Part shown: piece after piece, positions 1,302 to 53,569 of the stretch | How the letters are laid out: each line of letters starts with the position of its first letter | How positions within the stretch are numbered: position 1 is the first letter of the stretch | Virus record (IMG/VR): IMGVR_UViG_3300022723_000142 | Span: 1 to 53,674 of that record | DNA: 53,674 nucleotides | Reading direction: 5' to 3' (one strand) | Source: a virus | Program-made: the position numbers and the translations under genes | The notes under the pieces: generated by a model | Database searches by the model: none | What the model was told of the DNA's origin: nothing | Seen by the model: the letters and a program-made list of their open reading frames with translations, nothing else

Positions 1302-3998
1302 ATGGTAGCACATTTTAATTTTGATAACCTCAAATCATTTGTCGGCAGCGAGAGGTTTACCGAACAGGGCAGCATTGAAAATCAGAAAGTTTGGGCACGG
1401 GTGAGGGCGTCACTACTTAAACAATTTCCTAGGTTGAAACTCTCTCAAAACTGGGAAATCGATATAGAAACCTGGCAGAAATTCAGAAAGCTTGCGCCTG
1501 AAAATATAGACAACAATACGCTCAGGAATGTGCTGATTGTTCAGGGATACATTAGCCTGAAGCCTGCTCAAATTAAGAGCAATTGGAAAGATGACTTATA
1601 TGTTCCTGGCAATGGCCAGGGGTGGAGTCACATTCGAGTCATGTTTTACCGTGGCATTTTTGGCGATTGGCAAGAGTATGGTGACGGTCAGCCGTTCGCA
1701 CGGGTAAGAATACCAACCGCAGAAATAAAGGACGGTGGGCCTAAATATTTATCGCCTAAAAATAGCGGTGGGAACCAAATATTTTGGCCCTACAAACTGG
1801 GCCGATTTGCGGGTAAGTGTGAGCCCTGCAAAGTTTTTCAATCAAGCTCGGATGGTGATGATTTAGCCTATGCCTTCAAGGGATCATGGTTGCTTACTGA
1901 GGGTGAGGATAAAGCGGTCATCAGCAATCTTTGGGGATATCCCTGTATCGCCATTGGGGGCGTTGAGATGTGGAAGGCGAGTAAAAAAGGACCAATTAAC
2001 CCCTGGCTGATGTCCTTCGCCATGAATGCCGATAAGTTAACTGTCATCTATGATAGCGATGCCTTCCACAAGCCGGGCGTCGTGTCGGCGCAGTCGCGCC
2101 TCTGTCGAGAGATGTTCAACCATCTGGCCGAACTCGCCAAAATCTCAGACGGCAACGGCGACGCTGAGGGCTACTGTGAGGAGGTTTGGGGCCAGTGTAA
2201 AGTTGATGGCCTGGATAAATATGGAGCGGATATCGCTAGGGTCCACATCGCCTATGGGTACTTGCCGCCCAATCCTTACAGTAAAGGCTTAGACGATATT
2301 CTGGCGGTTCATCAGGGCGGCTGGCTTGCTACGATTTTGAGAGAGTCCCCACGGGCGTTTGAGATATCCGTGCAAGAACCGGACGACAGCAAGGATAAAG
2401 AGAACAAGATCAAAGCAAAATGGCTATTCACAGAACCTCGAAAGTTTGGGCTGACTAACTCAAAACTCAGCCCCGTGCAGAACAACTGTGTGAGCCTCAT
2501 TCGCGGGGCACTTTCGGCAGGCTGGCTCCAGCTCAACCACTGGCGGCCCGTGGGACAACGGCAGAGTGCCATGACCTATGCTTGGGAACGCACACAGCAA
2601 ATATGGCAGCTCTCCCCTTCTAAGAACGCCGCCAACTACGCGCTAAGGCAATGGTCTGAATTGTCCCCAGGGCGCAGCGCCATGGATGGGGTATCAGGTT
2701 TCGTCGATGCGGAAATGACCTGCTTTGAACACATCTCACCTAATGTTGGCAGCAATGGCCACCGGTTTATGGGGGTAGAGGGCGGCGACTTTGATGTCAA
2801 ATTGGGGCAATTGTTACCGATTCAGCCGAACCATCATTGCTTTAGCCGCATCGATATTAAGCCATTTGAGGGGCGACCTGATAAGTTTATGGACTTCTAC
2901 GCCCAACGGATGACAGGCGGCGAAGTTGACATGGAACGGTTTATGAGCTTTCTATCCATCTGCATTCGTGACCCTGGAAAAGTACATGTGTTGGGCTGGA
3001 TAACCGGGAAAGCGGGCACCGGCAAAAGTACGCTGATGAAGCTAGTCGCTAAAATTTTAGACGGCTGGGTGATGCCCGAAGATTTGAGAAACGTGTTTGA
3101 TTCCAACAACGCCAACAAAGGCTACTTGCCTTTGCACCTACTAGGAAAAATCCTTATATACGACGACGACTGGAAAGGGCTTCTCAGCACCAGCATGATT
3201 GGACACCTCAACAAAATTGCGACCAATACCGACATGCCCTTTCGCGGGATGAGCAAAGATCCCATCTTGACTAAACCAAACATGGGTGTACTCATGATCA
3301 CTAACGAAGACCTAATAATGAGCGCTGCTGACATTCAAGGGCTTCCCCGACGCATCCAGAAATGGGAATTCAAAGACGACAAATTCACCTCAGACGACTA
3401 CACCTTGGCCGAGTCACTACTCGAAGAAGAGAAAGGGAAAATTCTTTGGTACTTGCTCCACAAAGACCTTGAAGACTGCGCCCAAGAATTACAGGCATTC
3501 ACCGAAGCTGAAGAGGATTCGATAGAGCGTGGCTTTGCCGTTAATCACAGCGCTGAGTGGGTCGAGCGCCTGGAAGTCTGGGCACAGCAAAACCTATTCA
3601 GCCTGCAAGAGGGAAACCACAAAGGGCAAAGTACAGCCAATTATGCCAGCTTGAATGTTGATGGAGGCCCCCACGGACTAAGTCGGCTCAGCAAGGAATC
3701 AAACACCACGGAAGGCAGGCCAGCAGACTGGAACTATCTACCGGAAGTGTTTGGCGTGAAAGTGACCACTACAACGGTGGAAATCTACGCCAACTCCGCC
3801 AACTGGATTAGCGCAATCGCCAACTACGAGCGAGGCGAACACAATCCTAATGCCAGCCACCGTGGAGATAGAACCACCCTCAAGGCGCTTAAGAGCTTTA
3901 TCGACACCCAAAATCAAATCGGACTCAACCACCGCGCTAAGGCTCAATTCAACGGCGACAGAATAAGCGGCTGGAGCATTGAGTTTAGGAAAACCTAA
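1302..3998 (+). CDS. DNA primase/helicase (Toprim-like region plus P4/D5-type P-loop NTPase)
   Basis: 898 aa. Toprim-like 'LLTEGEDKAVISNLWGYPCIAIGGVEMW' and 'VIYDSDAF'. Walker A 'GKAGTGKST' and Walker B 'ILIYDDDW' in the C-terminal half. Confidence 0.6.
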   Translation: MVAHFNFDNLKSFVGSERFTEQGSIENQKVWARVRASLLKQFPRLKLSQNWEIDIETWQKFRKLAPENIDNNTLRNVLIVQGYISLKPAQIKSNWKDDLYVPGNGQGWSHIRVMFYRGIFGDWQEYGDGQPFARVRIPTAEIKDGGPKYLSPKNSGGNQIFWPYKLGRFAGKCEPCKVFQSSSDGDDLAYAFKGSWLLTEGEDKAVISNLWGYPCIAIGGVEMWKASKKGPINPWLMSFAMNADKLTVIYDSDAFHKPGVVSAQSRLCREMFNHLAELAKISDGNGDAEGYCEEVWGQCKVDGLDKYGADIARVHIAYGYLPPNPYSKGLDDILAVHQGGWLATILRESPRAFEISVQEPDDSKDKENKIKAKWLFTEPRKFGLTNSKLSPVQNNCVSLIRGALSAGWLQLNHWRPVGQRQSAMTYAWERTQQIWQLSPSKNAANYALRQWSELSPGRSAMDGVSGFVDAEMTCFEHISPNVGSNGHRFMGVEGGDFDVKLGQLLPIQPNHHCFSRIDIKPFEGRPDKFMDFYAQRMTGGEVDMERFMSFLSICIRDPGKVHVLGWITGKAGTGKSTLMKLVAKILDGWVMPEDLRNVFDSNNANKGYLPLHLLGKILIYDDDWKGLLSTSMIGHLNKIATNTDMPFRGMSKDPILTKPNMGVLMITNEDLIMSAADIQGLPRRIQKWEFKDDKFTSDDYTLAESLLEEEKGKILWYLLHKDLEDCAQELQAFTEAEEDSIERGFAVNHSAEWVERLEVWAQQNLFSLQEGNHKGQSTANYASLNVDGGPHGLSRLSKESNTTEGRPADWNYLPEVFGVKVTTTTVEIYANSANWISAIANYERGEHNPNASHRGDRTTLKALKSFIDTQNQIGLNHRAKAQFNGDRISGWSIEFRKT

Positions 3999-4024
3999 CC
4001 CCCACCCAAAACCAAATACCACAG

Positions 4025-4056
4025 AAAGCCCGCTTAGGTGAGCGGGCTTTTATTTT
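4025..4056 (+). terminator. Rho-independent terminator
   Basis: AAAGCCCGCT (4025-4034) pairs with AGCGGGCTTT (4041-4050), then TTTTATTTT; sits 27 nt after the primase-helicase stop. Confidence 0.8.
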
Positions 4057-4122
4057 AGGTATAAAAACATACATCGTAGCTAAACACCCGTTCACACTCA
4101 CTTACACTACAACTTACACTAC

Positions 4123-4570
4123 CTTCATCTTAGCTTCATATTAAAGCTTTTTCGCCATTTCTGAAAAACACCTAACTGTCACAAGGGGCTTTTATGAAGC
4201 TAAGATGAAGTAAGTATCAAAATATACAGTTTTAGGGGGAGGGTGGCACACTTCTGAGGGGGGGTGGCACACTTCGAAAATAGCAAGTGTGCCACCCCTA
4301 AAGCATTGCTGTGTAAGGATTTTGCTTAGGGTGTCACACATGGCACACTTCTTTCTGATTTAATTTACTAGACAAAATTCTCTATATTAGAGAAAAGGCA
4401 ACTGGCACAGTACTACACGCCATAGGAGATCTACTATGCACGCTCCGACTCAGATGAAGTGTGACACCTGTGCCACCCCTCTAAGAAATGCTTTAGTAGC
4501 AGTAGTTTGAGGGTGGCACACTTGCTATTTTCGAAGTGTGCCACCCCTAAAGTTTTGTGCCACCCGGTAT
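4123..4570. repeat. Non-coding structured module A: TGGCACA-box cluster, two 38-bp hairpin palindromes, AT-rich core; inverted homologue of 24612..25041
   Basis: Boxes GGGTGGCACACTTC at 4241, 4262 and 4511. Inverse boxes at 4285, 4534 and 4557. Composite box 4329-4351 with an imperfect inverse at 4456-4479. Hairpins at 4261-4298 and 4511-4547. 18-bp perfect inverted repeat 4123-4140/4193-4210. 65-bp run 4320-4384 identical to the reverse complement of module B. Confidence 0.9.
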
Positions 4571-4599
4571 TTACGTAGAAAACTCCAGGAGTGGTCAAC

Positions 4600-4630
4600 A
4601 AAAAAACCGCTGATGGGGGAGCATCAGCGG
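4600..4630 (-). terminator. Rho-independent terminator for the 4671..4862 gene
   Basis: CCGCTGATG (4607-4615) pairs with CATCAGCGG (4622-4630). The A run at 4600-4606 gives a U tract on the - strand. Confidence 0.7.
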
Positions 4631-4670
4631 CGCAGTGTGGCTAAGTTAGGCGGCTTGCGGCAAAGTCGAT

Positions 4671-4862
4671 CTATGCGGCGAAGTCGAACAGAGCATCAAG
4701 GTAGGTTCGACTCGCCCGGCGATCACCGCTGCCATTCTGCATTAAGAACAGCGACAATGCCGCTTGGAATGCGCGGTCTTGGCTCCACCCTGGATGTTTA
4801 TCTAGATATTGCTGCATCGATTCGTGGAGTTCGTTGGGAATTTGAACATGTAAACTGATCAT
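4671..4862 (-). CDS. DUF2811-like small protein (family otherwise typical of cyanobacterial genomes)
   Basis: 63 aa. 'IPNELHESMQQYLDKHPGWSQDRAFQAALSLFLMQNG' matches my recollection of the DUF2811 signature (..ELHESL..FL..HP.WDQDR...AALSLFLLQN). Confidence 0.5.
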   Translation of the reverse strand: MISLHVQIPNELHESMQQYLDKHPGWSQDRAFQAALSLFLMQNGSGDRRASRTYLDALFDFAA

Positions 4863-4914
4863 TTTGTTTTCCTGTAGTGAGGTGCTTTCAATCCCTAAGA
4901 GGTAGATGGGATTT

Positions 4915-5133
4915 TTATTGCTTGACTTCTAGCCGATTTGAGAATTGGGGGACTCTCTTGTTGACGGGGATTAACTGAAGCTCCCCTGAAGTGGAATCAA
5001 GGAAGGCTTTATCCCCTACATAGCGTGCCCTTATATGTTCTTTAGGCCTAGGTTTGACGTAATGGACAATCTTCTGAGATTGTCCCCTGATGTTGAACCG
5101 AGCGATCGCTCGGTATAGTTGCTCCGTCATCAC
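4915..5133 (-). CDS. Hypothetical protein
   Basis: 72-aa ORF in a co-oriented three-gene block; no recognisable motif. Confidence 0.5.
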   Translation of the reverse strand: MMTEQLYRAIARFNIRGQSQKIVHYVKPRPKEHIRARYVGDKAFLDSTSGELQLIPVNKRVPQFSNRLEVKQ

Positions 5134-5199
5134 TCAAAACCTCATAAACAACTCAAACAACCCAGGGCAGCGATCGCACTGCCCAGCATCATCGCCAAA

Positions 5200-5544
5200 T
5201 CAAAATAGATCATTGTCGGCAGCCTGAAACCGATCGCCCTGGAACTTCTCGTCCCAAGCGAAGTATCCTCCATCAAGAGGCAGAACACAGTGCGGATATT
5301 CTCCGTGTCGCTGCATCGTCGCTAACTGGGTTTTATAGCCTTTCATGTATCGCTTGCTGTATTGGTACATCGGCGTATCGCCATTGCGAGCATCAGATAC
5401 CCCCTTTCCTTGCAGTGCGTCCATGCGCCAGCCGATGAAATACAAGTCTTTATCGGTCAATTGACTAGAGTATAGTTCAACATCTTCTCCCGCAAAAAAG
5501 TAATCGGGCTGTTGAGCGGCGATTCCAAAAGCTTCGTGTGTCAT
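5200..5544 (-). CDS. Hypothetical protein
   Basis: 114-aa ORF, first gene of the leftward block, divergent from the XRE gene. Confidence 0.55.
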   Translation of the reverse strand: MTHEAFGIAAQQPDYFFAGEDVELYSSQLTDKDLYFIGWRMDALQGKGVSDARNGDTPMYQYSKRYMKGYKTQLATMQRHGEYPHCVLPLDGGYFAWDEKFQGDRFQAADNDLF

Positions 5545-5631
5545 TGGATTACATCCTTGCTGTGTACATCTCCCATTGTTGCCGATGCTGCGAGAGGTGT
5601 CAAGCGTGGCCTTACATTTATACGTCAGTGC

Positions 5632-5660
5632 TTGACATTTGTAATCTTGAGCTTTACAGT
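5632..5660 (+). promoter_or_regulatory. Sigma-70-type promoter for the XRE/pentapeptide operon
   Basis: TTGACA (5632-5637), 17-nt spacer, TACAGT (5655-5660). GAGG Shine-Dalgarno at 5675 and ATG at 5685. Confidence 0.55.
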
Positions 5661-5987: not shown

Positions 5988-6707
5988 ATGTCCTTATACA
6001 CCGAAACCGACGGGCGGCTCATCATCCCCCCGCCGTCGCACATCTCATACACAAGCTGGCCAAGACGGGAATTTGTTAGTCGAACTGGCCAGTCTTGCTG
6101 GGAGGGTTTAGCGGATTATGTCGACAGCCTCAAAGTCAAGCTGTCGGTCACTCAGCGGCGTTTTGAATACCTTCGTGACCATCCCAACCAAACGCAGGAG
6201 AACAAAAAGGCTCAGGCGCGTTTTCTAAAAGAGCGAACCCATCTAGCCATGTGCCTGGATCATTATGAGCTGGTGCTGAGTAAGCAGACTAAGCGGTCTA
6301 GCGACTTAGCGCTAAAACATGCAGCCACTGCCGCTACGATGGCCAGAGAGAACAGAGAGTACATCTCGGAGCATTATAAAGCGATAAAAAAGTTCGATAA
6401 ATGTCGGGGGCACATCAAGGCCAACCGCGAAGCAATCTCTCGCAATCAGTTGGCCATTCGAGGGTTCATAGACAACGCTCACCGGCAATCCGCGATCGCT
6501 CACCAGGTAGAACAGAATTCTGATGCGATTGTGAGCTACGCAAAAACTTTGCAGGGAGTTCAGCGCAATGTGGCTGAGTTAAAGCAGTTGCTCAACGCGC
6601 GACCAGTTCAAAAGGTGAAGCCGCCCCCGCCCCGTGAAGAACCGTGGAACGCATCAGGGTATCGACCGCCTGATTTGGCGGGAACGTACATATTAGATAG
6701 AGAGTGA
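5988..6707 (+). CDS. Hypothetical, predicted coiled-coil protein
   Basis: 239-aa ORF. Overlaps the next gene's start by 4 nt, suggesting translational coupling. Confidence 0.6.
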   Translation: MSLYTETDGRLIIPPPSHISYTSWPRREFVSRTGQSCWEGLADYVDSLKVKLSVTQRRFEYLRDHPNQTQENKKAQARFLKERTHLAMCLDHYELVLSKQTKRSSDLALKHAATAATMARENREYISEHYKAIKKFDKCRGHIKANREAISRNQLAIRGFIDNAHRQSAIAHQVEQNSDAIVSYAKTLQGVQRNVAELKQLLNARPVQKVKPPPPREEPWNASGYRPPDLAGTYILDRE

Positions 6708-7288
6708 TCATGGAAGTAAGTGAATTAATTGAAAAATATCAGGCTGGGGAACGTGACTTCAGCTGGGCAGACCTCTGCGGGGCAAACCTCAGCCGGGCAA
6801 GCCTCTGCGGGGCAAACCTCAGCTGGGCAAACCTCTGCAGCGCAAGACTCAGCCGGGCAAACCTCAGCCGGGCAAGACTCAGCCGGGCAAACTTCTGCGG
6901 GGCAGACCTCTGCGGGGCAAACCTCAACGGGACAGACCTCAGCGGGGCAGACCTCTGCGGGGCAGACCTCTGCGGGGCAAACCTCTGCCGGGCAAGCCTC
7001 AGCCGGGCAAACCTCTGCGGGGCAAACCTCTGCGGGGCGCGAGGCAACGGCAGAGAGATTTGCTCTGCACAAATAGGGAAATACGATCTAATTTGGACGG
7101 CTGAAAATCTATGGATCGGCTGTCAGTCTGCACCATTAAATGTTTGGTGGAATCGAACCCCGGAGGACATTGAGCAGATAGAACAAGGCGCAGGCGCGCT
7201 CTGGACAAAACACAGGGACTTTATTTGGCAAATGGTCGACCAATTTCCGGCTACACCCACCAATGGCAAAGCCCCTAAAAAAGCGTGA
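6704..7288 (+). CDS. Pentapeptide-repeat protein
   Basis: About 18 consecutive A(D/N)LXX units ('ADLCGANLSRASLCGANLSWANLCSARLSRANLSRARLSRANFCGADLCGANLNGTDLSGADL...') followed by a ~70-aa non-repeat C-terminus. Confidence 0.85.
   Translation: MIMEVSELIEKYQAGERDFSWADLCGANLSRASLCGANLSWANLCSARLSRANLSRARLSRANFCGADLCGANLNGTDLSGADLCGADLCGANLCRASLSRANLCGANLCGARGNGREICSAQIGKYDLIWTAENLWIGCQSAPLNVWWNRTPEDIEQIEQGAGALWTKHRDFIWQMVDQFPATPTNGKAPKKA
6761..7037 (+). repeat. 15-nt periodic tandem repeat encoding the pentapeptide units
   Basis: Reiterated gcaaacctc(a/t)gc(c/g)gg units. The repeat creates shadow ORFs in three other frames. Confidence 0.9.
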
Positions 7289-7330
7289 TCGTCACTCTGG
7301 TATCGAATTCGGGCACAACAAAAACCTCTT

Positions 7331-7369
7331 CTCATTACTGCAAAAGTGCAACACTTTTGCAGTAATGAG
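7331..7369. terminator. 18-bp perfect hairpin between convergent genes (possible bidirectional terminator)
   Basis: CTCATTACTGCAAAAGTG (7331-7348), loop CAA, CACTTTTGCAGTAATGAG (7352-7369). No U tract on either side. Confidence 0.5.
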
Positions 7370-7420
7370 GCTAGTAGCTAGTGACAAAAGATAGTGACAC
7401 GATTAGCAGCACCCAGAACT

Positions 7421-7468
7421 AAATTGCGGCTATCCCCGTCCTCTATAGGGCGGGGATAGCCGCGATTT
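7421..7468. terminator. Long hairpin immediately downstream of the - strand XRE gene
   Basis: AAATTGCGGCTATCCCCG pairs with CGGGGATAGCCGCGATTT (one mismatch). Ends 4 nt from the stop at 7472. Confidence 0.5.
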
Positions 7469-7471
7469 AGT

Positions 7472-7732
7472 TCATACTCTCCAATACTCCATATCAACAC
7501 CCAATGCTTCACACAATGGCGATAGCATCGTGGCCGGAATGCTGCCTGTAATTTCCCAATAGCTTATAGTTTGCTGCATCACTTTGACTTGCTTTCCAAG
7601 TTCAGACTGGGACAAGCCAGCAACCGCCCTAGCCCCCTTTAGTTTTTGTTTAAGCCGTGATTCTGGTGTGAAACCATTTGGGACGGGACACCATTCATCG
7701 ATATTGCCACTGGGGTTAATGTCTTTTACCAC
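7472..7732 (-). CDS. XRE-family helix-turn-helix transcriptional regulator
   Basis: 'LKGARAVAGLSQSELGKQVKVMQQTISYWEITGSIPATMLSPLCEALGV' is a typical HTH_3 pattern. Divergent from the head operon. Confidence 0.7.
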   Translation of the reverse strand: MVKDINPSGNIDEWCPVPNGFTPESRLKQKLKGARAVAGLSQSELGKQVKVMQQTISYWEITGSIPATMLSPLCEALGVDMEYWRV

Positions 7733-7803
7733 ATTGATATTACGTAATTCAATCCCATTCTAGTTTATTCCGTAGGGTTTGTTTTCATACTGCCTACTCT
7801 TGA

Positions 7804-8982
7804 GTGGTATGTGATTCGGCTTGCTGCATGGCCTTTCGTTGCGATCGCACCCCTATCGAAAATTATGAAGAACTGCCCGATGGCCGCTTGCGTGTTCGGG
7901 CAACATTTTCGCGTGTGGGCCCACTTGACTACATCCGCAGTGATGGCACGGTCCAGACTGAGTATTTAGATGCCGACGAACTATTCCGAGCTGATTCACT
8001 AAAGACCGCCGGACTAGCACCCGTCACTTTGGGGCATCCCGACGAAGGTTTTGTTACTCCAAAAAACTGGCGTAAATATGCGGTCGGAGCGTCCGGTTCT
8101 ACTATCACGGCTAACCGTCAAGATGGCTTGGTTGAAGTGGTGTTTCTCGTTGGCGATGAAGACGCGATCGCGGCTATCAAAGAAAAGAAGGCGACTCAAG
8201 TTAGCGCGGGCTATTCCACCACAGTTGAGCAGCGCAGCGATGGAAAGTTTTACCAAACCAATAGGCAATACAACCATTTGGCGCTAGTCGAGCGGGGTCG
8301 AGCAGGCCCTGACGTAAAAGTTCATTTTGATGGACTTGATGATTTTGCAGTGCAAACAGATGACTCTCAGGAGGTCAAAACCGACATGGCCAAATATAAG
8401 GGCATGGAAATGGATGAGAAGGCGGTGGATGCTTTTAAAGAAATGGAAGCTGACATGGCCAAGATGAAAGAAGACATGAAAGGCATGAAGTCGAAAAGCG
8501 ATGCTGCGGAAAGCTTCACCATTGACAAGCTCCAGGGCGAGATTGATGGTTACAAAACTCGCATTGATGCGCTTGAAAAGGAGCGTGATGGGCGTCTGGA
8601 TGCCGATGCAGTTGCCGCTCTGGCGACTCAGCGCTTGAATGCGTTTGAAGAGTGCAAGAGCTTCATAAAAGATGCCAAGTTTGACGCGGCTATTGAGCCG
8701 ATTGAGTGGCGTAAAGCGGCGATCGCTAGCGTCAATTCCAAGCTAAATCTAGATGGCAAGTCAGACGACTACGTGAACGGGATGTTCTCTATTCTGTCCA
8801 CGGCAACCGAAGCGGCAACTGTCAACGCTGAAAGCGAAGGCGCGAAGACATTTAAGGACGTTTTAGACGCGGCGGGTACGGCAGGCCATAGCGGTACCAG
8901 TGGTGAGCGTGCCGACGAAGATAAACAAGATGTTGACGATATTGCGGCGATCAATGGGCTCTTTTCTGGAGGTAACAAGTAA
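7804..8982 (+). CDS. Prohead protease/scaffold-like protein (DUF2213-like N-terminal domain, acidic coiled-coil C-terminus)
   Basis: 392 aa and first gene of the head block. 'VTLGHPDEGFV', 'VSAGYS' and 'YNHLALVERGRAG' resemble the DUF2213 family as I recall it. The C-terminal half is K/E/D/M-rich and scaffold-like. GTG start; the alternative is ATG 7828. Confidence 0.5.
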   Translation: MVCDSACCMAFRCDRTPIENYEELPDGRLRVRATFSRVGPLDYIRSDGTVQTEYLDADELFRADSLKTAGLAPVTLGHPDEGFVTPKNWRKYAVGASGSTITANRQDGLVEVVFLVGDEDAIAAIKEKKATQVSAGYSTTVEQRSDGKFYQTNRQYNHLALVERGRAGPDVKVHFDGLDDFAVQTDDSQEVKTDMAKYKGMEMDEKAVDAFKEMEADMAKMKEDMKGMKSKSDAAESFTIDKLQGEIDGYKTRIDALEKERDGRLDADAVAALATQRLNAFEECKSFIKDAKFDAAIEPIEWRKAAIASVNSKLNLDGKSDDYVNGMFSILSTATEAATVNAESEGAKTFKDVLDAAGTAGHSGTSGERADEDKQDVDDIAAINGLFSGGNK

Positions 8983-11623: not shown

Positions 11624-11734
11624 ATGGCAACTACAACCGAAGTCGGCACATCCTTAACAACTATCCTCACGATTCCTGCAAAGTTTTCCAGTCGCATCGG
11701 CATCCAGATTGAAATTGACTACTCCCCGCTCTAA
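11624..11734 (+). pseudogene. 5' fragment of a small virion-module ORF interrupted by the TnpB element
   Basis: The ATG lies 1 nt after the previous stop and encodes MATTTEVGTSLTTILTIPAKFSSRIGIQIE. The frame then runs into the element's hairpin and stops at 11732-11734. Confidence 0.5.
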
Positions 11735-11880
11735 AGAGACGGGGATTCCCCGGTCACCCGGAGAGGTTTCTGCTTCGTAGCACCTGCCTTTCGAGATTTA
11801 CTCTCTTCGGGTCTTACGGTCGCTCCACAGACTGAAACCGCTTGCCCAGCGGCCAAGACATTTATCGCAGCGTTGACATC
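11699..11880 (-). ncRNA. Predicted omega (right-end) guide RNA of the TnpB element
   Basis: Inferred from known TnpB biology: the omega RNA spans the 3' end of tnpB and the right end, then reads ~16 nt into the flank. The right-end hairpin (11723-11745) overlaps the tnpB stop. No direct evidence of transcription. Confidence 0.3.
11722..11749. repeat. Right-end subterminal hairpin motif of the TnpB element
   Basis: CTCCCCGCTCTAAAGAGACGGGGATTCC; stem TCCCCG/CGGGGA. Confidence 0.8.
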
Positions 11881-12927
11881 CCGATCATGGTGAAATCCAC
11901 ATTCAGGACAATCCCACTCTCGAATATTGAGCGGCAATCGTTGAACGACATGCCCACAGTTCGAGCAGCGCTTGGAGGAGGGAAACCAACGGTCAATTTT
12001 GACCAGCTCCCGACCATACCATTCGCTCTTATATTCAAGCTGCCTAACCAATTCACCCCAGCTAGCATCCGATATGGATTGAGCCAGGGAGTGATTTTTC
12101 ACCATATTCTTCACAGCCAAGTCTTCAACGGCAATCACTTGGTTGTCGCGCACCAATTGAGTTGTCAGCTTGTGAAGGAAATCTTTGCGAGTATCCGCAA
12201 TTTCGGCCTGCAACTTGGCTACTTTAAGCCGTGCTTTATGCCGATTGCTGGAACCTTTCAATTTGCGAGACAAAGCTTTCTGCGCTCGACGCAGACGCTT
12301 GTACTTTGCCTTAAACGTTTTGGGATTAGCGATCTTCTCACCTGTACTCAGCGTGACCAGACTGCTAACACCCAAGTCAATCCCGACCTTATTGCTGGTG
12401 CCGGGAAGATGGTTGATTTCAACATCAACCAGCAAACTCACAAACCACCTGCCGGACGGATCAAGCTTGACCGTCACCGTAGATGGTTCAGCACCTTGAG
12501 GCAACTGCTGACTCCAACGAATCGGCAACGCTTCAGAGCATTTAGCAAGGAACAGTTCACCGTCTTTCCAGCGGAAGGCAGACTTAGTGAACTCGGCACT
12601 GCCACCATTTCGCTTCTTTTTGAAGTTCGGATATTTAGTCCGACCAGCCCAAAAATTAGCAAACGCCTTTTGGAGGTGCCTCAAACCTTGCTGCAAGGGG
12701 ACGCAGCTAACTTCATTCAGGAAGTTCAGCTCATCTTCCTTCTTCCACTCAGTCAGCAATGCCGACGTTTCTTTGTACCCAATTCGCTCTTGCCTTTCAT
12801 ACCAGCCTTCAGTCCTTGCGGCCAAAGCACGATTGTATACAAGACGGGTACAGCCCAACGTTCGCCGCAGCAGGTTTTCCTGCTCGGCAGTTGGGTAAAA
12901 ACGATAGCGATAAGCACGTTGAGTCAT
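11731..12927 (-). CDS. tnpB: TnpB (IS605 OrfB-type RNA-guided endonuclease)
   Basis: 398 aa. N-terminal 'YRYRFYPTAEQENLLRRTLGCTRLVYNRAL'. RuvC-I 'VGIDLGVSS'. RuvC-II 'VIAVEDLAVKNM'. Zn ribbon 'CSNCGH...CPECGFHHDRDVNAAINV' carrying the RuvC-III Asp. Confidence 0.9.
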   Translation of the reverse strand: MTQRAYRYRFYPTAEQENLLRRTLGCTRLVYNRALAARTEGWYERQERIGYKETSALLTEWKKEDELNFLNEVSCVPLQQGLRHLQKAFANFWAGRTKYPNFKKKRNGGSAEFTKSAFRWKDGELFLAKCSEALPIRWSQQLPQGAEPSTVTVKLDPSGRWFVSLLVDVEINHLPGTSNKVGIDLGVSSLVTLSTGEKIANPKTFKAKYKRLRRAQKALSRKLKGSSNRHKARLKVAKLQAEIADTRKDFLHKLTTQLVRDNQVIAVEDLAVKNMVKNHSLAQSISDASWGELVRQLEYKSEWYGRELVKIDRWFPSSKRCSNCGHVVQRLPLNIREWDCPECGFHHDRDVNAAINVLAAGQAVSVCGATVRPEESKSRKAGATKQKPLRVTGESPSL

Positions 12928-21953: not shown

Positions 21954-21988
21954 CCGATACAATCGTGGCTGATCTGGATTGCTATGAG

Positions 21989-22017
21989 CTACCCCGCCTT
22001 TTGAGAAGGCGGGGTAG
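21989..22017. terminator. Bidirectional hairpin terminator between convergent genes
   Basis: CTACCCCGCCTT (21989-22000), loop TTGAGA, AAGGCGGGGTAG, located between the stops at 21953 (+) and 22023 (-). Confidence 0.65.
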
Positions 22018-22022
22018 TTCAT

Positions 22023-24524
22023 CTAAACCCAGCCATGACGACGATTAAGTAAGTCAGCATCATTTCGAGTGCGATGGTATTCGAGGCTGCACTTGCAATT
22101 CACAAAACATATCCGAGTTCCCGGCATTGACATTTGCCCCCTCAGTACAATCCCCTTGCCAGTTTCAGCGACACATTCTGAGCAGTGTTCGGCAACGCCC
22201 AACCTATTGCTGACATAGGGAAACTCAGCCACGGGATGGGCGGCATCCTGCGCCTGGTTATATAGCAGCTCGGCATCATGCACATAGAGTTTAGCCCGCG
22301 CCGAGATCGCCCCGACCGACATCACACCGCTCAATACTTCGGCACTGAACCGCCGCAGGTAGTCGTACTGCCTTAATAGTTCATCCTTTACGGTTTCTCG
22401 ATAGCGCGGCTCAATATTGCGTCGGTTGCCAAATCCGAACACGAAGAACAATGCTGCTGCCCCTGCAATGATTTCGGCTAGCCGTTCTTCCCATTGCGCC
22501 GCATCGATATCGCCCGACTCTAGCAGGGATGTTAGAGCGTCAATCTGCCCCTCATAACTATCGAGTTCAGCGGTGAGCAGTTCTAGAATCTCATCAGGCG
22601 TCACCCGGTCATCGCCATCGCGGTATTGGCCTGCATCTTCATCCCATTGCCACCCTTGTTCATCGGCCAGCGATCGCACCTCAGCCCAATCAATATCGCT
22701 CAACTCTTGAAAGTAGGCAACGCTGGGCAATCGAACGAAGTCCGGCTGAAAAAGGTCAGTATCAAACTTTTTTGCATGTTCCTCTCCCCCGTCCGCTCTT
22801 GTTGATTCAGCAGTTTTGTAATTCGCAAGCTCTTTTAATGTTAGCTCTCGCACTTCGCCCATAAACTCTTTGGGCATAGCTGAAAGATAAATGGCCTTAG
22901 CTTCATCAATTGATGAAGCACCAATAACCATCTTTTCTTCGTCGAATTTACCATTGATAACTTGGTCAATAGCAAATACTTTTTTGCTGGCCAGGTCAGT
23001 GCCCACATAAACATCAACAGCCATCCCGTCAGAGCCTTTTGTCTTTTGGAAATGCCCATAGCCAGCTTGCAAAACCTTGCCATGCCGCTTATCAAACGGA
23101 AAATACTGAAGTCCAACCCTAAAACCGTTCCAGTCAATGACCCTTTTTGTTGGGGTTGCTTCATCATTCCTATCGTTAGGCGCTGCTGTAGCCACTTCGA
23201 TTACATTCTCAATGTCTTGGCCAGTCGAGATCGCCATGCGCACCTCATCAGCGCTCACGGCCCCCGACTCAATCAGCAACTTAAATGTCTCGGCTTGCCC
23301 CTTCTTGTTTTCCTGCTTCTCCTGTGGCGTTTCGGTGTAGATACTGGGATATTCAATTTCCCAGTTACTGGGCACTGTGCCCAACGCCTCAAAGATGGCG
23401 TGGAATACGATGCGGTGGTTGCTCATAAAATCCTGAGCTTGCCAAGCCTGCACTTGTTCGGCATATGCCCGCGTTTCAGCGCCGCCGCTATCCGCCAACG
23501 CCGATTTACCCACAGTCCCCCAAATCTTATAGAAAGGTAACCCGGTGGCCGCCGTCAGCTCATCTACAATCGACTGAAAGTTCTCCTTGACGCCAGTGAA
23601 GGAGCGCTCTTGAAAGTCGCTGTTGCTGGTCTGGGCATCTTGCACCAACACCTTATGCAGACTCATCATCTGGGCGATCGAGTTCATCATATTGGTGAGT
23701 GCCGTTTCACCGCCTGGGCCAGCCAGAACATCTACCAGACCATCGATAGAAACCTTAATCAGCGAATAGGTTTGTAGCCCTTTTGAGATAGCATCCTTGG
23801 CCATATAGTGTCTATTGAAAATCTCAAATATTCCCTGAATGACGGAGTCGTGGCCTGCATCGCCTTCTAACTGTTGATCATAGGGGTGAATCTCAGCACC
23901 ATCAAACACCAGCACTCGGCTATGGTGGATGCGCTGGTTAAACCTGAAATCCTGGTTAGCATTGTCTCTGCCCTCCGTGCGGGCGATGCGGTAAAACTCC
24001 GGGTCGCTAGGATTGATAGTTGTGAAATCTGGTCGCAGCTGGTAACGATCCAGCACTGAAAAACCCTCAAAACTTCGCACCTTTCGCAGCGGCTTTTCTG
24101 GATTCTCAGAACCATTCACCCTCAGCACAATATATGCGCGTCCAAACAGGTCGGCATATTGCTTCGCCTTACGGAATGCGTCATGGCCTGACATTTGCCG
24201 ACTATAAGGGGATGCATTCTGAGAGCCCTGGTTATAGATGGCGATCGCTGCTGCTGCGTCCTGTTCGTCTCCCCCCTCATGGATGACCAACTCAACCCCT
24301 TTACGTGTCATGTCGTTAGCGGGGGCATCGATGATGCGGCGAATTAGCCACGAGCCACGGTATAGCGATCGCAACTCCACTTCAGACAGCAGCCGCACCT
24401 GCCCAACCTGAGTTGAGGTGAACGGGTCTCGGCCATGAACCCCCATACCCGTTGCCGTATTTCCTAGCAGCGAGTTACTGAGGGCGTTGGCTAGATTATC
24501 AAACCGCAGGTCAGTGTCAATCAT
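22023..24524 (-). CDS. Portal protein candidate with long C-terminal extension (possible head-morphogenesis fusion)
   Basis: First large gene downstream of terL on the same strand. The track ORF reaches 24623, but the first 33 codons run into the repeat module, so ATG 24524 (MIDTDLRFDNLANAL...) is the more plausible start. The C-terminus ends in a Cys cluster 'CSECVAETGKG...CFVNCKCSLEYH'. Confidence 0.55.
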   Translation of the reverse strand: MIDTDLRFDNLANALSNSLLGNTATGMGVHGRDPFTSTQVGQVRLLSEVELRSLYRGSWLIRRIIDAPANDMTRKGVELVIHEGGDEQDAAAAIAIYNQGSQNASPYSRQMSGHDAFRKAKQYADLFGRAYIVLRVNGSENPEKPLRKVRSFEGFSVLDRYQLRPDFTTINPSDPEFYRIARTEGRDNANQDFRFNQRIHHSRVLVFDGAEIHPYDQQLEGDAGHDSVIQGIFEIFNRHYMAKDAISKGLQTYSLIKVSIDGLVDVLAGPGGETALTNMMNSIAQMMSLHKVLVQDAQTSNSDFQERSFTGVKENFQSIVDELTAATGLPFYKIWGTVGKSALADSGGAETRAYAEQVQAWQAQDFMSNHRIVFHAIFEALGTVPSNWEIEYPSIYTETPQEKQENKKGQAETFKLLIESGAVSADEVRMAISTGQDIENVIEVATAAPNDRNDEATPTKRVIDWNGFRVGLQYFPFDKRHGKVLQAGYGHFQKTKGSDGMAVDVYVGTDLASKKVFAIDQVINGKFDEEKMVIGASSIDEAKAIYLSAMPKEFMGEVRELTLKELANYKTAESTRADGGEEHAKKFDTDLFQPDFVRLPSVAYFQELSDIDWAEVRSLADEQGWQWDEDAGQYRDGDDRVTPDEILELLTAELDSYEGQIDALTSLLESGDIDAAQWEERLAEIIAGAAALFFVFGFGNRRNIEPRYRETVKDELLRQYDYLRRFSAEVLSGVMSVGAISARAKLYVHDAELLYNQAQDAAHPVAEFPYVSNRLGVAEHCSECVAETGKGIVLRGQMSMPGTRICFVNCKCSLEYHRTRNDADLLNRRHGWV

Positions 24525-24611
24525 GGAAAGTAACAGGAAGGTTCCCTCTAGTTTACTAAATACAGAAACACTACCTATACAACAGGCAAACTTGATTAGA
24601 GACCCTGTTTT

Positions 24612-25041
24612 ATACGGTGGCACAAAACTTTAGGGGTGGCACACTTCAAAAATGGCAAGTGTGCCACCCCTAAGCCCTTGATATACAAGGATTCTTTAGG
24701 GGGGTGTCACACATGGCACACTTCATCTGGGTCGGAGCGTGCAGAGTAAATTTTCTATGACGTGTAATGCTGTGCCAGTTGCCATTCTCTCTTTTAGAGA
24801 ATTTTGTCTAGTAAATTAAATCAGAAAGAAGTGTGCCATGTGTGACACCCTAAGCAAAACTCTTGATATGTATAGCTTTGAGGGTGGCACACTTCGAAAA
24901 TAGCAAGTGTGCCACCCCCCTGAAGTGTGACACTAAAATGGTATATTTAGATACTTTTCTCAGCTTAGCTTCATAAAAGGGCGTTGTGACAATTTGGAGC
25001 TTAGGAGAAATGTATTATGGCACAATACATGTGCCAGTTGC
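24612..25041. repeat. Non-coding structured module B: inverted homologue of module A, located between terL and the portal gene
   Basis: Hairpins at 24633-24670 and 24882-24918. Perfect 23-bp inverted repeat 24702-24724/24828-24850 around a 103-bp AT-rich core. About 10 TGGCACA/TGTGCCA boxes. The reverse complement aligns with 4150-4565 at roughly 80-90% identity by eye. Confidence 0.9.
25009..25030 (+). promoter_or_regulatory. TGTATTATG..ATACA palindromic motif (copy 2)
   Basis: AATGTATT-ATGGCAC-AATACAT. Related to the copies at 53543 and 51683 and contains a TGnCACAAT extended -10-like string. Confidence 0.35.
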
Positions 25042-25053
25042 GTATGGCAGTAA

Positions 25054-25086
25054 CAAAAAGCACTTAGACATTTTCGGCTAAGTGCT
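25054..25086 (-). terminator. Rho-independent terminator downstream of terL
   Basis: AGCACTTAG (25059-25067) pairs with CTAAGTGCT (25078-25086). The A run at 25055-25059 gives a U tract on the - strand. Sits 44 nt after the terL stop. Confidence 0.7.
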
Positions 25087-25129
25087 TGGCTCTCATTTAG
25101 TTTGTTTGTTTGGTTTGTTCGGGCGATGT

Positions 25130-27775
25130 TTAACTGTACAGGGCATTTAGAGTGTCGACGGCTGTCCCTTCAATTAGGTCATTGATCGCAAATACCAGTG
25201 CATCAAGGCGGTTTGGGCTAGGCATTCCCGGCTGCCATGTACACATCTCACGCTCCAAATCTACAAACGTCCCAACGTGATGAACTTTCCCCGCCTCATA
25301 TTGTTGGTGCGCTGGTTCGGCCCGAATAAGTTTGCCGCGACTGGATGTAGATTCTTTCACTGCAACAGTAGGGTCAATCAGCAGGACAGTCGCTTTCACC
25401 ATGTCGCCGCCAAAGTTGCGTTCAGCTACCAGATAATTAGCTTTCAAATCATGGTATCGGTCGATCACTGCCTGGAATCTTTCATTTGGGGTTCCCTTCA
25501 AACTGTCATCGTTGAGCACATACAGATGGCCGCTCGCTGCCTTACCCACCGCAACGTTACCGGCCTCTGTCGTAGAACTGCCCGAAGGATCAACGCCGAT
25601 CACAATCCTGATCAGCTCAGGGGTGCTGGTGACACGATACGGAGTGATGTCTCTGTCTTTGTCCCATAGCCCTCCGTCCGGTTCGTCTTCATGCTGTGAT
25701 TCGGTAAGGAATGTCCTCAGCCCCCACTTATTAATCTGTCGTTCAATGACTTCGAGGTTTTGTCCTTCTGGCCATGTGGGTTTGCCGCCACTGACGCGGT
25801 AAAGGTTTTGTTTTTTCTGATCGCTCCAATACTGCTCATATTCCAGGTCTATAGCAGCGGGCTCTTCAGTAACGGTTGCCCCTAGCAATATTTCCGCCCG
25901 ACCATCAGCAACTTGAGCGATCGCGCTGTCTTTGTGAATTTTGTTTTGCACAAAAAGCACGGTGGCATCGGTGGACTCAGCAGCGAGGATGTCACGGGAT
26001 ATTGTCTTGAGCTTCTTGGCAGTGGCTTCTGGCGTGTCGTGGGTGCCGTCGATATCATCCAATATTATGAGGTCGGGACGCTGTTCCTGAATACGAGCTC
26101 CACGAATCCGGCTATTCAGTCCCACACCAACGACGCCGAACCCATTCACCGTTTGCAACCGTTGGGCTGTCCAGTTGAGGGAAGCTGAGTATTTGTTGAG
26201 GGCACGGGGGACACCCATCTGTTCCAGCAATGCCGCGATCGCCTGCACATGCAAGTCGGCTTGATCTTGAGTGCCACAGACATACAGCGCCAATCGACGT
26301 TTCAACGAGCAAGCAAAGTACGCACAGAGCTGTTCTGCGATGGTGCTGTTGTGAGTTACCAAAAGATTTGTAATTAAGTTTTGATTACGCTCAACTTGAA
26401 CATCATAAGTTTCTCTGTCTCCCACGTCCTCAATTTTGACAACTTTGTCCCAAAAAACATCGGCTTTTTCTAGCCAAACCCATTGCGGCAAAGGCTCGTA
26501 AGTGATTGCTTTTTGAAGCTTTCCCCTGGTAATGTCGTAATCCTTCCCCAGTCGAGGCCCACCAGCGTTCCGGATTTTTCGATTAGTTCCTTTTGGCAGA
26601 CCTAACCCCACTTGACGCGGATAAGTGTCAAAAAGACTGTATCTGTGCTTTTCGCAAACCTTTTGCAGTTTTTCTTTTTTTAGAATTAGCGGCATCATAT
26701 CTCTGCATCGACTTAAGCAGTTCTGATCGATCATTAGTCTCCAAGCGCCTGCATAGTCATTAGGAGCTTCGATTGTTGAACTAATGACGCCAACTTGAGC
26801 CAGCAAAATTTCAAGGTCTTTCACTAACGCCTGATTAGCTAGAGCAATCCCCATCTTGCGCTCTTCTACCCAGCCATCGGTATCAAACATAGCTGCTAAA
26901 AAAATCCACTTTTGACGCTCTGGCAACTGAAAGACAAACTTAGGCACTCTCTTTTGAGTAGCTAATTTGTCTTTAATCCCTACGTTTTTAATCCACTGAC
27001 GCCCAAAACCTTTTAAGTTGTAGCCATATATCCCACAACGCTTAACTTCCATGCCCATTGCGTTAGCACAATAAATAAAATCCCTGACTATACACTCATC
27101 TGCATTTGTAAAACTACAATTATTAGACGTTGTAGAACCCTCGGCAATCATATAAGCCAGTAACTTAACCTCTTCATCTGGCCTGTCGATTACAGCAGAA
27201 ACGCTTTTTAAGTGGCGAGGTGAGGCGATCCTATCTTGCAGCGTCAATTCCCCTGCCAGCTTCCATCCGTCAAAAGTCCGCACTTTGTGGTCAGAAGTTA
27301 AGACAACTGATTTCCCTGTTGCCGTAGTCACCTGAATGCATGGCTTGATGCCGCTAAAAACTTTAGCGATGATGGAGTCGCCTTCGATCTGCCCAGACGC
27401 CTCATTCCAAGAAAGTATTTTTTCCCCTGGCTTGATTTCAGAAATAGGAGCTAACGACCCATCGAGTAAAGACAACATGGTATTTGCATCCAAGCATTTT
27501 GCACCGCCCCTACCCCATATCTCAACACGTGGCGTTGCGGGCTGTCCTGATTCGATAGCCTGGCCCCATTCCCAAACAGCCCTATGGCGATCTCCGTTAG
27601 GGATGAGGGTACCAGGTAGAGTGCGGGATAGGAATGCTTGTGGGGTTTCGGTGGGAGATGGGATGAGGTGAGGTGGGAGTGTGGGTCTTTCGTTTGTCGG
27701 CTTTACCCCTAACTCCTCAGCTAAACCATCCCACCAACTGTCTAAGCGCTCTGTTGTTGCTCTTTTTCTTGCCAC
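25130..27775 (-). CDS. terL: Terminase large subunit interrupted by an intein
   Basis: 881 aa. P-loop-like 'WGRGGAK|C...HN|ST' is split by the intein. After removing 383 aa, the 498-aa extein is typical in size. Downstream 'LIILDDIDG' resembles Walker B. Located after terS and before the portal gene. Confidence 0.75.
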   Translation of the reverse strand: MARKRATTERLDSWWDGLAEELGVKPTNERPTLPPHLIPSPTETPQAFLSRTLPGTLIPNGDRHRAVWEWGQAIESGQPATPRVEIWGRGGAKCLDANTMLSLLDGSLAPISEIKPGEKILSWNEASGQIEGDSIIAKVFSGIKPCIQVTTATGKSVVLTSDHKVRTFDGWKLAGELTLQDRIASPRHLKSVSAVIDRPDEEVKLLAYMIAEGSTTSNNCSFTNADECIVRDFIYCANAMGMEVKRCGIYGYNLKGFGRQWIKNVGIKDKLATQKRVPKFVFQLPERQKWIFLAAMFDTDGWVEERKMGIALANQALVKDLEILLAQVGVISSTIEAPNDYAGAWRLMIDQNCLSRCRDMMPLILKKEKLQKVCEKHRYSLFDTYPRQVGLGLPKGTNRKIRNAGGPRLGKDYDITRGKLQKAITYEPLPQWVWLEKADVFWDKVVKIEDVGDRETYDVQVERNQNLITNLLVTHNSTIAEQLCAYFACSLKRRLALYVCGTQDQADLHVQAIAALLEQMGVPRALNKYSASLNWTAQRLQTVNGFGVVGVGLNSRIRGARIQEQRPDLIILDDIDGTHDTPEATAKKLKTISRDILAAESTDATVLFVQNKIHKDSAIAQVADGRAEILLGATVTEEPAAIDLEYEQYWSDQKKQNLYRVSGGKPTWPEGQNLEVIERQINKWGLRTFLTESQHEDEPDGGLWDKDRDITPYRVTSTPELIRIVIGVDPSGSSTTEAGNVAVGKAASGHLYVLNDDSLKGTPNERFQAVIDRYHDLKANYLVAERNFGGDMVKATVLLIDPTVAVKESTSSRGKLIRAEPAHQQYEAGKVHHVGTFVDLEREMCTWQPGMPSPNRLDALVFAINDLIEGTAVDTLNALYS
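26348..27496 (-). mobile_element. Intein (383 aa) with LAGLIDADG homing-endonuclease domain
   Basis: Starts at Cys94 'CLDANTMLSL' and has block B 'VLTSDHKV'. LAGLIDADG motifs 'LLAYMIAEGS' and 'FLAAMFDTDGWV'. Ends 'LLVTHN', followed by the +1 Ser. Confidence 0.85.
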
Positions 27776-53542: not shown

Positions 53543-53569
53543 AAAATGTATTATGCTACAATACATTTT
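53543..53569 (+). promoter_or_regulatory. TGTATTATG..ATACA palindromic motif (copy 1) upstream of the first replication gene
   Basis: AAAATGTATT-ATGCTAC-AATACATTTT (10-bp arms) containing TGcTACAAT, an extended -10 match. Partly repeated at 1-22. Confidence 0.45.

Follow-up and report, generated by a model that had tools for sequence, protein, structure and literature searches.

The alpha protein of P4 joins a primase and a superfamily 3 (SF3) helicase to a C-terminal origin-binding domain, and P4 possesses two separated clusters of the same 8-bp iteron (TGTTCACC), ori and crr, both of which are needed in cis; crr is composed of direct 120-bp repeats, and ori and crr are not copies of each other. 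In the Staphylococcus aureus pathogenicity islands (SaPI), the origin lies immediately downstream of rep and contains 6-12 iterons in two groups that face opposite ways on either side of an AT-rich center; a C-terminal winged helix of the Rep protein binds these iterons, and PriRep5 is a fused primase-helicase (PMC9371898). The origins of the phage-inducible chromosomal islands (PICI) follow the same plan, with two iteron sets flanking an AT-rich region (PMC6092414). In SPP1, a second origin interrupts the late structural genes (PMC6316719), and it has been proposed that oriR stalls replication forks and triggers the transition from theta to concatemeric replication (PMC6316719, PMC3485210). 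The iteron origins of plasmids such as pPS10, RK2, R6K, and F likewise carry replicon-specific repeats next to an AT-rich unwinding element (PMC4980987). Here we analyze a repeat module of a tailed phage represented by the IMG/VR record IMGVR_UViG_3300022723_000142, the entire 53,674 nucleotides of which derive from the public run SRR23862443 and are referred to as the window. Module A (4156-4567, + strand, about 410 bp) resides in a 672-bp non-coding gap between positions 3998 and 4671, directly behind a primase-helicase gene, and an inverted second copy, module B (24616-25012, - strand), is situated between the terminase and portal genes. From their sequence and setting, we consider it fairly probable that module A is an iteron-type replication origin and that module B is a second, origin-like copy of it.

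Both modules stand out from the remainder of the genome by their content of a short box. The heptamer TGGCACA was found 20 times in the window compared to an expectation of 9.9 ± 3.3, and none of 100 shuffled sequences reached this number; nine copies are located at 4244-4562, ten at 24618-25036, and a single stray copy at 52511. An extended form, GTGKCACA, was present 18 times (3.2 ± 1.5 expected), with 17 of these copies inside modules A and B. A second motif, AAYTGKCACA, has six copies in the window, five of which lie in or beside the modules, when 0.49 would be expected. These counts bear out the claim of the first-pass annotation of this DNA that TGGCACA is concentrated in two places (19 of the 20 copies). 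The surrounding gap had been described there as lacking a plausible open reading frame (ORF), and no ORF is conserved across the modules. The individual boxes, palindromes, repeats, core, and terminators that it had listed were all recovered at, or no more than one to two bases away from, the positions it gave.

The gap opens with the intrinsic terminator of the primase-helicase gene (4024-4056, + strand; 4024-4051 in the terminator scan), which is located immediately upstream of module A. By direct reading, it is followed by two copies of the direct repeat CTTACACTAC (4101-4110 and 4113-4122, + strand) that may represent degenerate ACTNNCAC versions of the conserved motif AAYTGKCACA. The motif scan placed the first intact copy of this motif, AACTGTCACA, at 4174-4183 (+ strand); this lineage-invariant site is enclosed by a perfect 18-bp inverted repeat (4123-4140 and 4193-4210) that is present in module A only and was not kept in module B. 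In the orientation of the module, there follows a single lineage-specific box, GGGTGGCACACTTC (4241-4254, + strand; direct reading and motif scan), and then the first palindromic box pair detected by the repeat search (4261-4298), a 38-bp element with 14-bp arms and a 10-bp A/T-rich spacer. Beyond a spacer region lies the double box GGGTGTCACACATGGCACACTTC (4329-4351, + strand), which consists of GGGTGTCACAC and ATGGCACACTTC with starts 10 bp apart and is identical in module B. It adjoins a 47-bp AT-rich core (4352-4398) with a GC content of 23.4% and a conserved ACAAAATTCTCTA stretch, a candidate DNA-unwinding element. Directly after the core comes the second copy of the conserved motif, AACTGGCACA (4400-4409, + strand), whose positions belong to the small number of columns without any variation in the alignment of relatives described below.

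The right half of module A mirrors the left one. Some 45 bp after the second motif copy, direct reading and the alignment of the two modules revealed an imperfect inverse double box, GAAGTGTGACAC-CTGTGCCACCC (4456-4478, - strand), which differs from a perfect mirror image in that the G/T variant position is swapped between its two half-boxes. A spacer separates it from the second palindromic box pair (4510-4548; 14-bp arms and a 10-nt spacer), the reverse complement of the first pair, and the series ends with the terminal inverse box TTTTGTGCCACCC (4553-4566, - strand), at which the homology between modules A and B ends as well. The terminator of the convergent - strand genes (4671-5544) forms the right edge of the gap (4606-4631, - strand). 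Copies of GGGTGGCACACTTC start at 4241, 4262, and 4511, and inverse copies at 4285, 4533, and 4553. Altogether, module A contains about 11 copies of a 12-14-bp lineage-specific box in mirror symmetry around the core, with 5-6 boxes per side; boxes of the + strand prevail in the left set and those of the - strand in the right set.

Protein searches yielded ten relatives of the primase-helicase (46-83% identity) and fourteen relatives of the 388-amino-acid (aa) protein encoded next to it. We read the loci of these relatives on the metagenomic contigs (designated by L numbers) and compared modules only where a contig extends past the primase gene. Wherever the contig was long enough (L016, L018, L020, L022, L024, L025, L026, L028), we found the same order of a superfamily 1 (SF1) helicase gene, the gene for the 38x-aa protein, the primase-helicase gene, a terminator-like hairpin with a T-run, and a module in the same orientation. 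The window conforms to this order across its ends: bases 1-127 are identical to bases 53548-53674, so that the window corresponds to a circular (or circularly permuted) genome of 53,547 bp, and, as in the relatives, the first genes of the window are immediately preceded by the SF1 helicase gene (51730-53532). A homologous module was present behind the primase-helicase gene in all relatives with a fully readable downstream sequence (primases 56-83% identical overall), and its orientation was that of the primase gene in all of them. It starts about 100-300 bp past the stop codon of the primase-helicase gene (window, L016, L018-L022, L024-L026, L028); the contigs L019 and L021 stop within the left part of the module, and in L017 one inserted gene separates module and primase-helicase gene. 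Since the module is found behind the primase-helicase gene in the window phage and in its relatives, it is most likely a replication origin.

Across the relatives, the modules could be aligned column by column and share one architecture, in which single boxes, a palindromic pair, and a double box are followed by the core and then by their mirror image. The boxes themselves, roughly 8-13 per module, switch jointly from lineage to lineage between the versions GGCACAC, GGCCCAC, GGCCCTAA, and CCCCCAC. In full, the lineage box reads GTGGCACACTTC in the window, GTGGCCCACTTC in L016, TGGCCCTAA(T)T in L018 and L028, TGGCCCTA and GGCCCAC in L022-L026, GTGGCCC(TAA/AC) in L017, and CCCCCACTTC in L020. 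The top box 7-mer of each lineage was counted 5-13 times in the module vs. 0-8 times in the remainder of the locus. Boxes are uniform within a lineage and different between lineages; there are about five box types, which are too few for an analysis of co-variation with a segment of a protein. Since about ten sites per module possess the same sequence and all change together, they appear to have co-evolved with a single trans-acting DNA-binding protein.

Other parts of the module have stayed constant while the boxes changed. The AT-rich core, with a ACAAAAAATTCTCTAA-like sequence, is kept across the lineages and was the lowest-GC 40-mer in six of nine modules. Two direct copies of AAYTGKCACA, 204-296 bp apart, were present in 10 of the 12 complete modules read, the exceptions being L017 with one exact copy and module B with a third copy, and this motif was almost never encountered outside the modules of the relatives. 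A TATAT-rich spacer motif in direct orientation is also constant across the lineages, and the spacers of the palindromes flip their orientation between modules A and B and between lineages. The genes downstream of the module vary, being either convergent (window, L016, L024) or co-oriented (L018, L022, L025, L028); with the replication gene block as its only constant neighbor, the module therefore has no consistent regulatory target. The synteny with the primase-helicase gene, the concerted change of the boxes, and the fixed core thus lend sequence-based support to the earlier suggestion of an iteron-type origin beside the replication genes.

At such an origin, a phage initiator, most likely the primase-helicase acting through its C-terminal domain, would bind the boxes on both sides of the core, and two assemblies in opposite orientation would melt the AT-rich core and load the helicase. 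Priming would then be carried out by the fused primase and bidirectional extension by the family-A DNA polymerase of the phage. The lineage-specific (private) boxes would confer replicon specificity, and the invariant motif would provide a common cue, perhaps as a loading or priming site or as the site for a conserved factor. Module B arose later by duplication, at a site between terminase and portal genes, and its most probable role would be that of a second origin or of a cis-acting element of replication akin to SPP1 oriR or P4 crr.

The primase-helicase (1302-3998, + strand; 898 aa) combines a DUF3854 Toprim-like domain with a DUF5906 D5/SF3-like P-loop domain, as judged by Pfam and PHROG matches. 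Its C-terminal domain (residues ~745-898) is the part of the protein that varies most across the lineages, and through this domain the protein is the most likely candidate for an initiator that would bind the boxes. AlphaFold modeled the domain with a predicted local distance difference test (pLDDT) score of 88 and a predicted template modeling score (pTM) of 0.84 as an alpha/beta fold ending in helix-helix-beta-hairpin, and among the weak Foldseek matches of the model were winged-helix-like ones to an interferon regulatory factor (IRF), the origin recognition complex (ORC), and a relaxosome protein (pCW3). A HMMER search with the C-terminal domain against 1.84 billion representative sequences recovered only family members and a few repetitive proteins, and a profile search of the PDB sequences with the primase-helicase gave no match. 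The model of the full-length protein was poor (pLDDT 51), and a fold search with it returned weak D5/E5 matches only. Another conserved member of the block, the 388-aa protein (56-1222 in the window; P0040-P0054 in the relatives), is encoded between the SF1 helicase and the primase-helicase and had no Pfam or PHROG match. [quoted passage not shown]

Several observations weigh against an assignment of the modules as origins. GC skew, which the first-pass annotation had put forward as a check, tracked gene orientation over the window and showed no sign of an origin. None of the five matches to the DnaA box consensus TTWTNCACA in the window falls inside a module, and their total is at chance level. 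A Foldseek search of the PDB with the C-terminal domain of the candidate initiator returned nothing significant (best E 0.27), and the helix most likely to serve in recognition, RGDRTTLKTL, shows no variation despite the changing boxes; such constancy would agree better with the invariant motif than with the boxes. Module B was not recovered at the terL-portal junction of the four phages related through their portal proteins, and the second copy is therefore not generally required. The single-stranded form of the module is predicted to fold very stably (-166 kcal/mol, z = -12), with compensatory changes in 25 of 40 pairs according to RNAalifold. Finally, many non-coding gaps of other IMG/VR phages, e.g., the family of L145, contain palindromic pairs of AAYTGKCACA, dispersed in an operator-like manner, and the invariant motif could therefore be regulatory.

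The dispersed palindromes agree with a function of the modules as operator or enhancer arrays, in which a phage transcription factor occupies the boxes, promoters lie in or beside the module, and replication starts elsewhere; such arrays might, for example, time the expression of the portal gene past module B or that of the genes after the module in L018, L022, and L028. XRE-type regulators are encoded by the window genome, weak hexamers resembling sigma-70 elements coincide in part with the outer boxes, and do so at homologous sites of the two modules, the TATAT-rich spacer motif is repeated in direct orientation ahead of the box groups, and co-oriented genes are found behind the module in L018, L022, L025, L028, and behind module B. 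However, none of the spacer motifs amounts to a canonical -10 element (TAnnnT), and module A and the modules of L016 and L024 precede only a convergent gene, which leaves no consistent target; in the window and in L016, a terminator-like hairpin is positioned before this convergent gene. Moreover, the boxes are missing from the phage's own divergent-promoter switch (5575-5660) and from every other intergenic region, and a general regulator would not be expected to stay strictly linked to the primase-helicase gene. We regard an operator array as unlikely on this evidence.

We also inspected the boxes for known protein-binding sites. A sigma-54 promoter, suggested by TGGCAC, was rejected since reading of the sequence revealed no TTGC at the right spacing; to our knowledge, cyanobacteria lack sigma-54. 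By eye, sites for CRP, LacI, IHF, and DnaA gave no convincing fit, and the formal scan found no DnaA boxes in the modules.

The predicted fold raises the possibility that the module functions as a folded RNA or a folded single strand of DNA, either in cis or in trans, e.g., as a primer or regulatory RNA. Its shape would be a four-way junction made up of the outer boxes, the two hairpins, and a long double-box stem closing on the conserved core, and the orientation of the module follows that of the upstream gene in all copies. The fold scores are not discriminating, because inverted binding sites yield the same signal. All the helices have a single sequence in common and switch it jointly, a behavior not expected of independent RNA helices and prone to cause mispairing; the right double box of module A retains its boxes yet loses four base pairs; the hairpin loops switch strand between copies and lineages; and the best-conserved parts, the core and AAYTGKCACA, would be unpaired. 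These details favor binding sites in double-stranded DNA. A terminator directly upstream of the module likewise speaks against a structured RNA. In Rfam 15, the whole window had no match at the gathering score, and positions 4000-4680 hit only miRNA and leader models at chance level (E ≥ 0.19, for matches up to E = 1). A structured nucleic acid is therefore highly improbable. Operator arrays and RNA structures had both been named as alternatives in the first-pass annotation; both are weakened by the observations above.

In reverse complement, module B shares about 80% identity with module A over an alignment of 409 bp, including exact stretches of 56 bp and 37 bp; the two modules are 20.4 kb apart one way round the circle and 33.1 kb the other. 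Alignment and motif scans on the - strand placed boxes at 24616-24628 and 24922-24934, palindromes at 24633-24670 and 24882-24918, double boxes at 24700-24724 and 24828-24850, the AT-rich core at 24781-24827, and motifs at 24771-24780 and 24985-24994. An extra copy of motif AACTGGCACA (25030-25039) is part of a TGGCACA-N5-TGTGCCA palindrome (25018-25039, - strand) just beyond the region homologous to A. Upstream of B, direct reading revealed a terminator-like hairpin with a T-run (25055-25092, - strand) that ends the gene for the large terminase subunit, TerL (25130-27775, - strand); it was not listed by the terminator scan because its loop exceeds 8 nt. Hence, a terminator hairpin precedes the module in both A and B, and each module is oriented like the large gene upstream of it, the primase-helicase gene for A and the TerL gene for B. 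Between A and B, box columns are 92% identical vs. 73% for all other columns (Fisher p = 2.7e-6), and most substitutions in boxes swap G and T at the position where the box varies. The boxes of B are of the window type and not of the L016 type. Since module B has kept all of its boxes and motifs, the same factor should still bind to it. The terL-portal gap measures 602 bp in the window vs. 27-35 bp in the four portal-related phages (six contigs), and module B therefore represents a lineage-specific duplication.

Two further explanations center on the existence of this second copy. Inverted copies with exact stretches of 56 bp and 37 bp in common might be partition centromeres of a plasmid-prophage or recombination sites through which the intervening 20.4-kb segment is inverted. 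The presence of the XRE switch together with the failure to find an integrase is compatible with an episomal lifestyle, and some centromeres are also repeat arrays flanking a core; parC of plasmid R1, parS of phage P1, and the dispersed sites of phage N15 are repeat-array centromeres. Yet a scan of approximately 50 ORFs detected neither ParA, ParB, or ParM nor a serine or tyrosine recombinase, and the conserved neighbor of the module is the primase-helicase gene rather than a partition or recombinase gene. Inversion needs a pair of sites, but the examined terL-portal junctions of the relatives are without a module, and a divergence of about 20% between A and B argues against frequent recombination between the copies. 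We consider such a role very unlikely. Likewise, a search for the integrase or recombinase domain that would accompany a phage attP site was negative for the approximately 50 window ORFs and the genes called in the relatives.

Module B occupies a junction that spans just 27-35 bp in the relatives, which could also reflect the landing of a non-autonomous mobile element in intergenic DNA, similar to miniature inverted-repeat transposable elements (MITE) or palindrome-associated transposable elements (PATE). Nested inverted repeats and box-like termini are in line with this, the genome already harbors a TnpB gene, a TnpB fragment, and an intein, and an unrelated metagenome contig (L006) carries a cluster of the same boxes. 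However, we saw no target-site duplication at the borders of A/B homology, the flanks of the TnpB genes are without such boxes, and the hairpin pattern has a single unrelated match in 185,579 representative genomes and none in IMG/VR. Furthermore, module A and the replication genes have been passed on together by vertical descent, with the position of the module preserved, the divergence of the module parallels that of the primase, and concerted switching of boxes is unexpected for a passive element. We attach next to no weight to this explanation.

Searches were also extended beyond the relatives. BLASTN with positions 4060-4640 against 50,697 GenBank phages gave no match; tBLASTN with the primase-helicase against the same phages was also negative, and with the portal protein it gave only matches of at most 25% identity. 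In IMG/VR, neither protein searches with portal and primase nor searches with the exact hairpin pattern or the core pattern AAAATTCTCTA...AACTGKCACA produced relatives or matches, and a motif-pair pattern matched at least 120 times, mostly by chance or in coding repeats, and none of these matches lay near a relative of the primase. The single match of the hairpin pattern in the representative GTDB genomes is a chance match in a metagenome-assembled genome (MAG) of the Coriobacteriaceae. Its eight matches in metagenomes were unrelated short, terminator-like hairpins belonging to a rumen-type repeat (L003, L007, L008) or singletons, except for L006. A literature search for the motif strings retrieved primer sequences only.

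Some of the arrays encountered in these searches merit a description of their own. L006 (Ga0316619_10072377) is an unrelated 2-kb contig with a GC content of 53% and no shared proteins; its non-coding positions 745-1080 contain seven GTGKCACAC boxes, with the double box of the modules (GAAGTGTGCCACCTGTGCCAC) and a palindrome of boxes beside AT-rich DNA among them, and three direct repeats of CAGTTAACTATATA lie upstream of the cluster. The same box specificity is therefore present in another phage-like genome. L100 (3950-4225) carries eight copies of AACTGTCACA in a mirror arrangement around an AT-rich stretch between the genes for a DEAD-helicase and a DUF2800 nuclease, and arrays of this type were also found in L054, L063, L074, L110, L114, and L143. 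In L145 (4270-9850), dozens of TGTGCCAGTT-N4-AATTGGCACA palindromes are present, mostly in stretches without long ORFs, and the same type is represented in L035, L038, L046, L055, and L115. The hairpin GTGGCACACTTCC...GAAGTGTGCCAC with an array of short GTGATAT hairpins (L003, 4216-4400; L007, 992-1420; L008, 7800-7990, OLNX01) recurs at several intergenic sites of one bacterial assembly and is unrelated to the modules.

Several signals point to a cyanobacterial host of the window phage. The cyanobacterial HIP1 octamer, the palindrome GCGATCGC, is present in 50 copies (1.1 expected), none of which falls within modules A and B; the window encodes a DUF2811 protein and a pentapeptide-repeat protein; and among the relatives of its portal protein are ones from cyanobacterial MAGs and from a Leptolyngbyaceae genome. 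Near-tandem DNA repeats are present at 6755-7038 within the pentapeptide-repeat gene (6704-7288). Three long palindromes, perfect or nearly so, are probably terminators; two are located at 7331-7369 and 7416-7473 and the third at the convergent gene junction 21984-22022. A protein with an FHA domain and a PAS/EAL protein of the cyclic di-GMP phosphodiesterase type are encoded at 44459-46853 and may be auxiliary genes for host signaling.

An intein bearing a homing-endonuclease domain of the LAGLIDADG family (protein residues ~103-476) splits the TerL gene, and the TerL proteins of the relatives (417-495 aa) are without it. A full-length TnpB gene (11731-12927, - strand) with HTH_OrfB_IS605, OrfB_IS605, and Cas12f-like TNB domains is located among head and structural genes of the + strand, and a truncated TnpB fragment (46992-47585, - strand) lies near the DNA polymerase genes; neither locus carries module boxes. 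The portal protein (22023-24527, - strand) has an additional InPase domain (PF18823) and a C-terminal extension of about 200 aa that matches a PHROG of unknown function. In L017, the SF1 helicase (36-2948; 970 aa) contains a LAGLIDADG insertion, and the gene that separates the primase-helicase gene from the module (7026-7982, - strand) encodes a 318-aa protein, which suggests that the replication block is often invaded by selfish elements.

For almost all uncultured phages the origins are unknown, and those of cyanophages have hardly been mapped; the module provides a candidate origin, derived from sequence alone, for a lineage of freshwater- or soil-type cyanophages with a D5-like primase-helicase. 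Four or five box sequences on one architecture offer material to study how initiators read DNA and how replicon specificity and incompatibility evolve. An inverted copy between the terminase and portal genes is rare and could reveal a coupling of the replication mode to packaging. In addition, module and primase-helicase together constitute a candidate minimal replicon for cyanobacterial vectors. A bolder extension, which we consider doubtful, is a two-tier origin code in which a universal AAYTGKCACA is combined with about 8-13 private boxes whose specificity has been switched repeatedly, so as to yield mutually exclusive replicon types among co-infecting relatives, and in which module B is not simply a spare origin. 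If this were true, module B could be a programmed fork barrier or cis element for the switch from theta to concatemer replication, as proposed for SPP1 oriR, or recombination between the inverted copies could flip either the 20-kb head-gene segment or one replication fork; a flipped fork would lead to an amplification like that of the 2-micron plasmid.

In its layout, the module is closer to the origins of SaPI and PICI elements and of viral SF3-helicase systems (PMC9371898) than to those of classical plasmids. As in SaPI and PICI, it is located directly 3' of the ORF for the initiator-helicase, at least six short repeats are arranged in two opposed sets around an AT-rich center in the window and its relatives alike, and the boxes, comparable to the element-specific repeats of SaPI and PICI, differ between lineages. 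The candidate initiator unites a primase with an SF3-like helicase and has a variable C-terminal domain, to which DNA-binding is assigned in SaPI and PICI and for which it is proposed here. The window modules possess no DnaA boxes, and we know of none in SaPI and PICI origins. Differences are found in the boxes, which are 12-14 bp long instead of 5-6 bp and partly arranged as 38-bp palindromes and double boxes with 10-bp phasing, in the lineage-invariant AAYTGKCACA that is added twice per module, and in the size of the module (about 410 bp) with a terminator between gene and module. Furthermore, the window protein has no detectable similarity to solved structures by sequence, and that of its C-terminal fold is not significant; and the element is a 53.5-kb phage with two copies rather than a satellite.

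The two modules recall oriL and oriR of SPP1 as two similar clusters of repeats and AT-rich DNA in one phage genome, one of them with the replication genes and the other breaking the late gene order and bracketed by transcription signals. There is no sequence relationship, however; SPP1 has direct repeats bound by the separate protein gp38, employs a DnaB-type helicase with a loader, and harbors oriL inside gene 38, whereas the window copies are inverted and mirror-symmetric. With P4, the window phage has in common a fused primase-helicase and two separated clusters of one repeat, but its two sites are copies of one module and those of P4 are not. Multiple replicon-specific repeats beside an AT-rich element are also the hallmark of plasmid iteron origins; these, however, consist of tandem direct iterons of 17-22 bp at a regular spacing of about 22 bp, and they contain DnaA boxes and rely on host DnaB loaded by DnaA/DnaC, whereas those of the window form inverted pairs, doubles with starts 10 bp apart, and singles in mirror symmetry. 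The lack of DnaA boxes in the modules therefore sets them apart from a classical plasmid-type iteron origin, and of the "classical layout" that had been ascribed to this locus, the repeats flanking an AT-rich core stand, while the arrangement is mirror-symmetric and not tandem. The module thus resembles a known type of origin, to which it adds long boxes, a palindromic and double-box sub-structure, an invariant motif, and an inverted copy next to the packaging genes.

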